Source: an uncultured bacterium | GTDB lineage: Bacteria; Omnitrophota; Omnitrophia; Omnitrophales; Abzuiibacteriaceae | Assembly: GCA_964387845.1 (NCBI GenBank) | Contig: CAYLXA010000002.1 | Coordinates: 192,001 to 256,000, forward strand | Length of the DNA: 64,000 bases | Reading direction: 5' to 3' | Program-made: the position numbers and the translations under genes | In this document: in pieces, positions 7,547-9,925 of the stretch | Layout of the letters: the number at the start of each line of letters is the position of its first letter | Position numbering within the stretch: position 1 is the stretch's first letter | The notes under the pieces: model-generated | Databases searched by the model: none | What the model was told of the DNA's origin: nothing | What the model saw: only the letters and a program-made list of their open reading frames with translations

Positions 7547-9337
7547 TCATCGGTTTTTTTGAGTTTTCTGCATCTGCCTGGAGATTTTCTGAACTAAAGG
7601 ATCTTCCGGGTATAAATCGAGCAATTGATTGTAAAACCCATAGGCGCGCTCATAGTTTTGGGTCGATAGGTAGTATTGACACAACTGCGACAGGATCCCG
7701 CGGGAATCCGGATCAACCTTCAACCCCTCATTCAAAACAGCAACCGCCTCCTGGTCACGCCCTTGCCGCATCAGAAATTCGGCAAGATGCTGAAATGTCG
7801 GGACTGCGGGCTTTGTCTTCACAGATTGCCGGTAAAGCGACTCTGCTTCGGATAAATTTCCTTTTTGGTGATGGTATTGCGCCATCAAGTCCTCATACAT
7901 GAAAAGCAACTGGCCCGGCCTCCCCGGTTCAATCAGCTTCAAATAACGGTAAGCGTCATCCGGTTTCTGTAGAATTAAATAATTCTGTGCCTGCATCAAA
8001 ATATCTTTCTCGCTCGCAAACGGAAAGGATAGCACTTTGTCCAGGTATTCAATCGATTTTTGAATATCGCCCTGGATAAAATAAGTCACTGCCGAATTGT
8101 AGTAGAATCGAGGGTCGGGAAACTGGGAATTCGCCTGATCCGTTGCCCAAAGGTCTTGATTGTGCTGCCACTGTTTTACACGAAGAACGCTCAACCAAAC
8201 CAACGAAATTAAAAGCACTACCCCGATAAACGTCGCGATCCGCCAGCCGAATTTTGCACCGCGGCTTGATAGATATTTCTTCGCGATGATTTGCAATCCA
8301 GACATCCAAAATGCCGCAAAGCCAATAATGGGAATGTATAAATATCGATCATTCATGAGCGTTGAAATCGGAGTGAAAATGTTAGACACGGGGATCAGGA
8401 AAATAAAAAACCACCCGAACCAAAATGCAAGCTTTGGATTTTTTCGCCAACACCAACAAAAAAAGCATGCCAGAATAAAAATTCCGGCTAACGATGCAAT
8501 AACGGGAAACTCCCAAACCGACTGAAAAACGCGCGTGGTATAGAAAGTTCGCAGATTAAACGGATAAGCAAGATGAGCAAAGTAACGGAATAGAATAGTT
8601 GCCATGACCCAAAGATTGCTCCAAAAACCGCCGCCGCGGAATTGAAACTCCGTTGTCACGTGCAGCCCGATAGTCACCGCGGCCGAAAAGAATGCGAGAG
8701 CAAAGGTGCTTAGGTAAACAAATAATCTCCTTTTCCCTTCAAACGGTTTCTCAAATGCACGTTCATACGCGAAAAAGATAAGCGGCAAAACAACCACGCT
8801 CGGTTTTGATAACACCGCCAGGCCGAAAGAAATCACCGTGAACCAAAAACGCTTTTGTCTGAAACTGATGAAAGAGACAAGCATCCACAAAGTTGATAGC
8901 ACATTCTTCCTCTCGGCAATCCACACAACCGATTCAATTTGAACCGGATGCAGCGCAAACAGAAACGCGCTTACAACGGCGATAGGCAAACTTCCGATCA
9001 TGCTCAGGAGAAGGAAATAGACTACGGCGGTATTGATACAATGGATCGCAATATTGGTCCGGCGGTAGCCTTCTGGATTTAATTTTGAAAATTGATAATC
9101 AACAGCGTAGCTTGCGATTGTCACAGGAATATAGTTCAGGACATACTCCTTAGAAAACCAATGCTTCATCGACTCCAGGTCAATCCTTCGGATGTCGCCA
9201 TTTTGGATTACATATTCGTCATCGTCTAGATTTGTAAATTCATAGTGAATGGAAGGTGTGTATACAAACAAAACAAGCGCTACGACTGCCAGAAGCGGTA
9301 TAACTTTGTGGATGCTTTTGAAGTAGGATGTCATCAT
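7547..9337 (-). CDS. Polytopic membrane protein with a C-terminal TPR array (TMTC/PMT-like, DUF1736-type); candidate glycosyltransferase
   Basis: About 12 predicted transmembrane helices in the first ~400 aa, then TPR-like repeats (YLDKVL..., YYLSTQNYERAYGFYNQLL...). This is the same architecture as the TMTC O-mannosyltransferase-like family. It lies between pilM and pilA. Confidence 0.5.
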   Translation of the reverse strand: MMTSYFKSIHKVIPLLAVVALVLFVYTPSIHYEFTNLDDDEYVIQNGDIRRIDLESMKHWFSKEYVLNYIPVTIASYAVDYQFSKLNPEGYRRTNIAIHCINTAVVYFLLLSMIGSLPIAVVSAFLFALHPVQIESVVWIAERKNVLSTLWMLVSFISFRQKRFWFTVISFGLAVLSKPSVVVLPLIFFAYERAFEKPFEGKRRLFVYLSTFALAFFSAAVTIGLHVTTEFQFRGGGFWSNLWVMATILFRYFAHLAYPFNLRTFYTTRVFQSVWEFPVIASLAGIFILACFFCWCWRKNPKLAFWFGWFFIFLIPVSNIFTPISTLMNDRYLYIPIIGFAAFWMSGLQIIAKKYLSSRGAKFGWRIATFIGVVLLISLVWLSVLRVKQWQHNQDLWATDQANSQFPDPRFYYNSAVTYFIQGDIQKSIEYLDKVLSFPFASEKDILMQAQNYLILQKPDDAYRYLKLIEPGRPGQLLFMYEDLMAQYHHQKGNLSEAESLYRQSVKTKPAVPTFQHLAEFLMRQGRDQEAVAVLNEGLKVDPDSRGILSQLCQYYLSTQNYERAYGFYNQLLDLYPEDPLVQKISRQMQKTQKNR

Positions 9338-9350
9338 GCCTATAAAGCAA

Positions 9351-9382
9351 ACGGCACTTGGATATGATTCCCCAAGTGCCGT
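9351..9382 (-). terminator. Hairpin immediately downstream of pilA (11-bp perfect stem ACGGCACTTGG/CCAAGTGCCGT) followed by a T-rich tract
   Basis: Inverted repeat read directly from the sequence, 36 nt after the pilA stop. Pilin genes typically end in strong intrinsic terminators. Confidence 0.45.
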
Positions 9383-9417
9383 CGCCTTTTGTGAAACAGT
9401 TGCTCCAATACTGCTGA

Positions 9418-9876
9418 TTAGCCAGAAACCGGGCTACCACCACAGGTAGTAACGCCTGCCGTATAGGCCGTTGTTCCATTGCTTCTAATCACGCCCGTAT
9501 TATCGACGCAATACGTGGTACCTGATTGGTTCGCAATCGTATTGGCAACCAAGTTATAACCGCTGCCATCCGATGAGAACGTTACGACGTGGCCGCGCTT
9601 TGTTGCAGGGCTCGTCCATGTCGCATCCAAATAAGCCGGCGTACCGCTTGTTAAAGCAGTAATCAACGTCGGATAGGCTGGCGGATTTTGAGCTGCGCGA
9701 TAACTTTCCATCGCAGAACTAAATGTCCTCAAATCGCCACGAACAGCCTGGTCATTTGCGTTCATGCGTGCACGAAGCAAGTTCGGAATCGCGATGGCCG
9801 CCAAGAGGCCGATGATCGCGACTACGATCATGATTTCAACGAGCGTAAAACCTTTTTTGTTTATTTTTGTCATCAT
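9418..9876 (-). CDS. pilA: Type IVa major pilin PilA (class III prepilin leader)
   Basis: MMTKINKKG|FTLVEIMIVVAIIGLLAAIAIP: a short basic leader, the G-1/F+1 cleavage site, Glu5, and a hydrophobic alpha1 helix. The C-terminal half is Ser/Thr/Gly-rich with paired Cys. The track ORF begins at an upstream GTG; the ATG at 9876 is preceded by an AAGGGG Shine-Dalgarno. Confidence 0.85.
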   Translation of the reverse strand: MMTKINKKGFTLVEIMIVVAIIGLLAAIAIPNLLRARMNANDQAVRGDLRTFSSAMESYRAAQNPPAYPTLITALTSGTPAYLDATWTSPATKRGHVVTFSSDGSGYNLVANTIANQSGTTYCVDNTGVIRSNGTTAYTAGVTTCGGSPVSG

Positions 9877-9925
9877 GTTAGTCACCCCTTTTTAAAGTTT
9901 GATGCCTTTGACTGCGGCTATATAA

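Follow-up and report, generated by a model that had tools for sequence, protein, structure and literature searches.

Pilin glycosylation alters the surface chemistry of the pilus, its phage susceptibility, and adhesion. [quoted passage not shown] TfpW, which is 646 aa long, has 11 transmembrane (TM) helices, depends on a DDX motif in its first periplasmic loop, and ends in a TPR region on the periplasmic side; its gene lies immediately downstream of pilA. It is the only GT-C-type pilin glycosyltransferase characterized, with putative homologs reported in five other Gamma- and Betaproteobacteria only, and our literature search found no paper on a TPR-GT-C protein encoded next to pilA apart from the TfpW work. 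TfpO resembles the present case in that its gene sits directly 3′ of pilA beyond a terminator and the pilin is modified; however, TfpO/PilO and PglL are enzymes of the Wzy_C/O-antigen-ligase type, which have an unrelated fold and transfer a preassembled glycan en bloc from undecaprenyl diphosphate.

The window, i.e., the whole 64-kb stretch of DNA that was analyzed, derives from an uncultured bacterium of the phylum Omnitrophota, where the named relatives of the enzyme and of the pilin discussed below are likewise placed. It contains a type IVa pilus cluster encoded entirely on the minus strand. In the direction of transcription, this comprises pilB2 (15656 to 17404), pilB (13950 to 15659), pilC (12702 to 13928), and then, upstream of the pilin gene, those for the sensor kinase PilS (11444 to 12685; Pfam 6TM_PilS/HisKA/HATPase_c) and the sigma-54 activator PilR (10077 to 11447; Pfam Response_reg/Sigma54_activat/HTH_8). 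The major prepilin gene (9418 to 9876; Pfam N_methyl, E = 6.7e−9, and NCBIfam IV_pilin_GFxxxE) is followed by a gene for a 596-aa membrane and TPR protein (7547 to 9337), directly downstream of which lie the genes for the alignment complex and secretin, pilM, pilN, pilO, pilP, and pilQ (3074 to 7401). Of these, pilM (6307 to 7401; Pfam PilM_2, TIGR01175), pilO (Pfam PilO), and pilQ (3074 to 4699; Pfam Secretin/Secretin_N/STN) were recognized by domain matches, and pilN and pilP were assigned by position and size only. The coordinates thus verify the first-pass annotation in placing the membrane and TPR gene between pilMNOPQ and pilA in a single orientation. As with TfpW, the gene is found immediately 3′ of pilA, here across an 80-nt gap occupied by a hairpin only; unlike that of TfpW, it is embedded in the core cluster, flanked by pilA and pilM.

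The hairpin and its T-rich tail (9350 to 9383, minus strand), previously noted as terminator-like, were recovered by a terminator scan. The stem has 13 pairs, 7 of them G-C, with a loop of 8, and is followed by TTTGCTTTAT; the structure is probably a leaky intrinsic terminator, i.e., an attenuator. The 86-nt intergenic stretch around it folds at −31.5 kcal/mol in ViennaRNA and forms a second small hairpin as well. On the other side of the pilin gene, 66 nt 5′ of its ATG, there is a putative sigma-54-like promoter element, TGGCATGGAAGTTGAC (9927 to 9942, minus strand), the −12 part of which is TTGA, the canonical form being TTGC. Across ten complete related clusters (the window included), pilSR and the GT-C gene were co-present in seven and co-absent in three, and the motif TGGCAY-N5-YTGA was found 52 to 80 nt 5′ of pilA in 7/7 clusters with pilSR and in 0/3 without. 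A strong hairpin with a T-run also lay 3′ of pilA in 7/7 related clusters, although the sequences vary. Together, the hairpin and the sigma-54-like element match the pilin-terminator-accessory gene cassette known from Pseudomonas and other bacteria (PMC11841053), and the pilA-hairpin-enzyme order is the layout reported for TfpO and TfpW.

The 596-aa protein has two parts, a GT-C-fold membrane glycosyltransferase domain (aa 1 to ~392; 8162 to 9337, minus strand) and a TPR domain (aa ~393 to 596, with the stop codon; 7547 to 8161, minus strand) matched by Pfam TPR_2, TPR_14, TPR_8, TPR_1, and TPR_19, whose repeats appear in the model as the paired helices of residues 393 to 595. The TPR domain is predicted to be the acceptor-recognition module. 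About 12 TM helices had been proposed in addition to the TPRs; the latter were confirmed, while AF2 helices and hydropathy gave a rough count of about 11. Since the N terminus is inside and the number of TM helices is odd, the TPR domain would be periplasmic. Just past TM1 (helix 9 to 31 in the model), in the first periplasmic loop, lies the predicted catalytic acidic pair D38-D39 (codons at 9221 to 9226, minus strand), which is invariant in alignments of 38, 18, and 12 sequences (A1, A3, and A4). In the 38-sequence alignment, K178, D330, and R331 also occur without exception and Y332 and Y334 almost without exception, the motif D330-R331-Y332-x-Y334 (DRYLY) being located between TM9 and TM10 of the model (301 to 312 and 336 to 355). 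A DD/DE motif is a feature of GT-C enzymes, and TMTC proteins use DD, K, and ERxxY motifs to bind acceptor, metal, and lipid phosphate (PMC7801869); by inspection against that source, without an alignment, K178 and DRYLY parallel TMTC motifs M4 and M7. The protein therefore combines a polytopic domain of GT-C fold, a DD pair in loop 1, and basic and aromatic residues in later loops, as is characteristic of the GT-C superfamily, and the best structural match of its GT-C domain is a protein O-mannosyltransferase. On these grounds, we consider it most likely an inner-membrane GT-C glycosyltransferase.

Assignment to the TMTC or PMT family, as put forward in the first-pass annotation, proved too strong, as there was no Pfam PMT, PMT_2, or DUF1736 match. 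The N-terminal 400 aa matched no Pfam model even at an E value of 10. A PDB sequence search with the membrane-domain profile returned nothing at E values up to 10, and searches of the PDB with the full-length protein and full-length profile retrieved TPR proteins only. PMT_2 (PF13231) is matched by 10 of 38 homologs, with a best E value of 8.4e−10, whereas the window protein has no match at E = 10, so that any link to PMT_2 would be transitive only; hhalign of the membrane-domain profile with the neighboring PMT_2 protein of a related locus (L083) gave an uninformative probability of 0.2%. The O-antigen ligase domain Wzy_C was not matched, and Wzy_C_2 remained below threshold (24.8 bits versus a cutoff of 28.5), within TPR residues 489 to 538. 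A role as secretin pilotin was rejected in view of scores of 30.1 bits for PilW (cutoff, 154) and 18 for Tgl (cutoff, 225), the lack of a lipobox, and the polytopic inner-membrane domain.

In architecture, the protein resembles the eukaryotic cadherin O-mannosyltransferases TMTC1 to TMTC4, which also have an 11-TM GT-C domain followed by non-cytoplasmic TPRs, and shares with them the loop 1 DD, the conserved loop 3 Lys, and (E/D)RxxY between TM9 and TM10. It differs from them in lacking DUF1736 (PF08409) or any other Pfam match in the membrane domain, in having NYIPVTIASYAVDYQ (NYxPxTxxSYAxDYQ) in loop 1 in place of SHKSYRP, and in being bacterial, with a donor that would be polyprenyl linked, not dolichyl linked. 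It also differs from the PMT family (PF02366 plus MIR; yeast Pmt1/2/4 and actinobacterial Pmt): there is no Pfam PMT or MIR match, the model consists of helices throughout and lacks a beta-trefoil, the TPRs take the place of the MIR domain as the likely acceptor-binding module, and structurally aligned residues are 10% identical.

The likeness to TfpW (AAM52060.1), compared by published architecture and position, is closer. Both proteins are of similar size (646 versus 596 aa), have the N terminus inside, cross the membrane about 11 times, carry an acidic DD(X) in loop 1, and end in periplasmic TPRs. The TfpW motif YX6PFX7P of periplasmic loop 4 is half present, as Y252-x6-P259-F260 with no Pro 5 to 9 residues further on; at least 90% of 38 homologs share Y252 and P259, and most members of the clade have Y-x6-P-Y-x8-P. 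TfpW is, however, a Pseudomonas protein and the window enzyme comes from another phylum. The donors would differ as well, since TfpW depends on a D-arabinofuranose pathway whereas relatives of the present locus encode a GT2 resembling polyprenyl-phosphate-hexose/HexNAc synthases. Moreover, TfpW alone both polymerizes and transfers, while the relatives add separate GT-C enzymes.

We think it rather likely that the pilin is the acceptor of the GT-C enzyme, gene position being the sole link between the two. PilS-PilR and sigma-54 would drive strong transcription of pilA, most transcripts would be halted at the hairpin 3′ of the gene, and read-through by a minority would yield much pilin and little enzyme. 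The pilin would be held in the inner membrane by its α1 helix, with the globular domain in the periplasm, toward which the catalytic face of the enzyme (D38-D39 and the conserved periplasmic-loop residues) and its TPRs would also be oriented. The TPR domain would then dock the pilin, and the GT-C domain would move a sugar from a polyprenyl-phosphate-monosaccharide to exposed Ser/Thr hydroxyls, candidate sites being in the α-β loop, the β2-β3 loop (with S118), and the C-terminal loop closed by the disulfide. The modified pilin would subsequently be polymerized by PilMNOPQ/PilBC. In the window genome, the locus would provide the initiating enzyme only, with the donor made elsewhere.

The start of the pilin gene had been set at 9885 (minus strand), which is a GTG; the ATG at 9876 is likelier and yields a 152-aa prepilin with the leader MMTKINKKG cleaved ahead of FTLVE, the mature sequence being FTLVEIMIVVAIIGLLAAIAIPN. 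Its AF2 model (pLDDT, 88.6) has α1 at residues 12 to 62, an α-β loop at 63 to 90, and four to five strands, with C123 and C145 bracketing a loop. Ser and Thr residues cluster in the α-β loop (T70 to T92), in the β2-β3 loop (T114, S118, T120, and T121), and in the C123-C145 loop and tail. The Ser/Thr richness that had been offered as a pointer to O-glycosylation is genuine, amounting to 28.9% of the globular part versus 11.4% in the long open reading frames of the window, a value reached by 0 of 697 background segments of equal length. It does not discriminate, however: because 120 pilin homologs average 25.5%, an abundance of these residues is typical of the family and carries no specific weight. 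As a discriminator, Ser/Thr content was discarded, the pilin of L169 having 18.7% with the enzyme present and enzyme-less pilins 17 to 22%. Position 118 of the pilin is Ser in 7/7 clusters with the enzyme and Ala in 3/3 without it, a pattern that could reflect lineage signal alone.

In the clade of orthologs, pil genes adjoin the enzyme gene in 9/9 loci examined. The neighbor-joining tree has seven proteins of known context in clade P0001 to P0018 (those of the window, L081, L082, L083, L087, L089, and L090), all pil linked, and in the sister clade none of five such proteins, from four loci, is. With the pilin orthologs as starting point, the order pilA-enzyme-pilM was also seen in L169 and L170. 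Identity to the window enzyme within the ortholog clade is just 31 to 39%, and the linkage to pil genes is therefore old. The same pil cluster occurs without the enzyme in three loci (L171, L172, and L173), from which it follows that the gene is accessory and not part of the core machinery.

The association with pili belongs to particular TPR-GT-C clades. A link of the whole family to pili was rejected, as tandem paralog arrays devoid of pil genes made up most of the 80 genome and 77 metagenome loci from outside the ortholog clade. About 150 distant family members are found mostly in tandem paralog arrays unrelated to pili, and because they mostly lack this link, membership of the large TPR-GT-C family is uninformative about the pilin. 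In one distant clade, a prepilin gene lies directly 5′ of the TPR-GT-C gene in L067, L129, and L166, and the same arrangement recurs separately in L057.

Protein O-glycosylation by the enzyme might instead be directed mainly at acceptors other than the major pilin, such as minor pilins, PilQ, PilN/O/P, or a broad periplasmic set; the PglL of Neisseria, for example, modifies pilin among many targets. This is compatible with a fold and motifs that back the activity and name no acceptor, with a distance to pilM comparable to that to pilA, and with the loose tie between pilin Ser/Thr content and enzyme presence. We nonetheless judge it unlikely, as the gene invariably keeps to the pilA side, past the pilA terminator and under the pilA sigma-54-like promoter; distant clades repeat the pilin-enzyme order with no pilMNOPQ nearby; the sole characterized enzyme of the same architecture and position targets the major pilin; and the many paralogs in the family make a narrow specificity of each plausible.

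In some relatives, the space between the enzyme gene and pilM is occupied by further glycosyltransferase genes. In L083 and L087, these encode PMT_2 and MptA_B-type GT-Cs plus a GT2 of 246 to 248 aa, and in L090 a PMT_2-like gene and a GT2 gene fill the slot up to the contig end. The best NCBIfam matches of the GT2, each below cutoff, are AglJ, PpgS, and dolichyl-phosphate hexose transferase; judging from this resemblance to polyprenyl-phosphate-sugar synthases, it is a likely donor synthase. The extra GT-Cs and the likely donor synthase in the slot suggest stepwise periplasmic assembly of a short glycan. Within the 64-kb window, there is no second TPR-GT-C copy or further GT-C, and phmmer searches of all window open reading frames with the GT2, PMT_2, MptA_B, and spermidine-synthase-like proteins of the relatives gave no hit at E < 1e−3. 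The comparative context, i.e., the kept linkage and the additional GT-C and GT2 genes, strengthens the interpretation that the pilin is glycosylated. Much more tentatively, the pil-linked clade may represent a PilSR-coupled pilin glycosylation module widespread in part of Omnitrophota and a third route besides TfpO/PglL and TfpW, in which the TPR-GT-C enzyme would initiate glycan synthesis on the pilin with a polyprenyl-phosphate-monosaccharide, the PMT_2- and MptA/B-type GT-Cs of the relatives would extend it in the periplasm, and the GT2 of the same slot would be the donor synthase.

MptA_B-type enzymes are known as mannan builders, and TPRs serve in glycan or export binding in PelB, BcsC, and PgaA. 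The presence of MptA_B-type enzymes in the slot of relatives, the weak NCBIfam TPR matches of the window protein, which include PgaA and PrsT, and structural scores for the lipid and glycan GT-Cs ArnT, AftA, ALG12, and PIG-M that nearly equal that for Pmt4 would all fit a GT-C enzyme acting on a surface polysaccharide or lipid coordinated with pili, with the TPRs binding glycan or export machinery. Yet such an acceptor is improbable: a protein O-mannosyltransferase gave the best structural match, none of the accompanying genes in the window is for a polysaccharide polymerase, exporter, or flippase, and a pilin-terminator-accessory order usually marks factors directed at the pilin. Least probable is a mainly non-catalytic membrane TPR scaffold for pilus or secretin assembly, comparable to PilF, PilW, Tgl, or TfpY-like proteins, considering that the PilW and Tgl scores fall far under their cutoffs and reflect generic TPR similarity, that there is no lipoprotein signal and anchoring in the inner membrane is by about 11 helices, that invariant catalytic-type residues at 22 to 39% identity argue for retained enzyme activity, and that related clusters keep the same gene set without the enzyme.

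Glycosylation of the major pilin by the GT-C enzyme would be a sensible extension of the known TfpW system, and the current understanding of how pilin glycosylation systems work is unaltered by it. If true, the TfpW design would also be in use in Omnitrophota, an uncultivated phylum, and one clade of TPR-GT-C enzymes would have an approachable acceptor in a small neighboring pilin. This would be the first acceptor assignment within the very large uncharacterized bacterial family of TMTC-like TPR-GT-C proteins. The pilin and enzyme form a pair small enough for heterologous reconstitution.

Two further observations were made in the comparative data. A GT2 homolog was present nearby in 14 of the 77 non-pil metagenome loci, directly adjoining in several, a frequency not judged clearly above background for so common a family. 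In the pil-linked clade, the enzymes are 39% identical where the pilins are 76% identical, indicating fast divergence of the enzyme, which could reflect glycan diversification under phage pressure.

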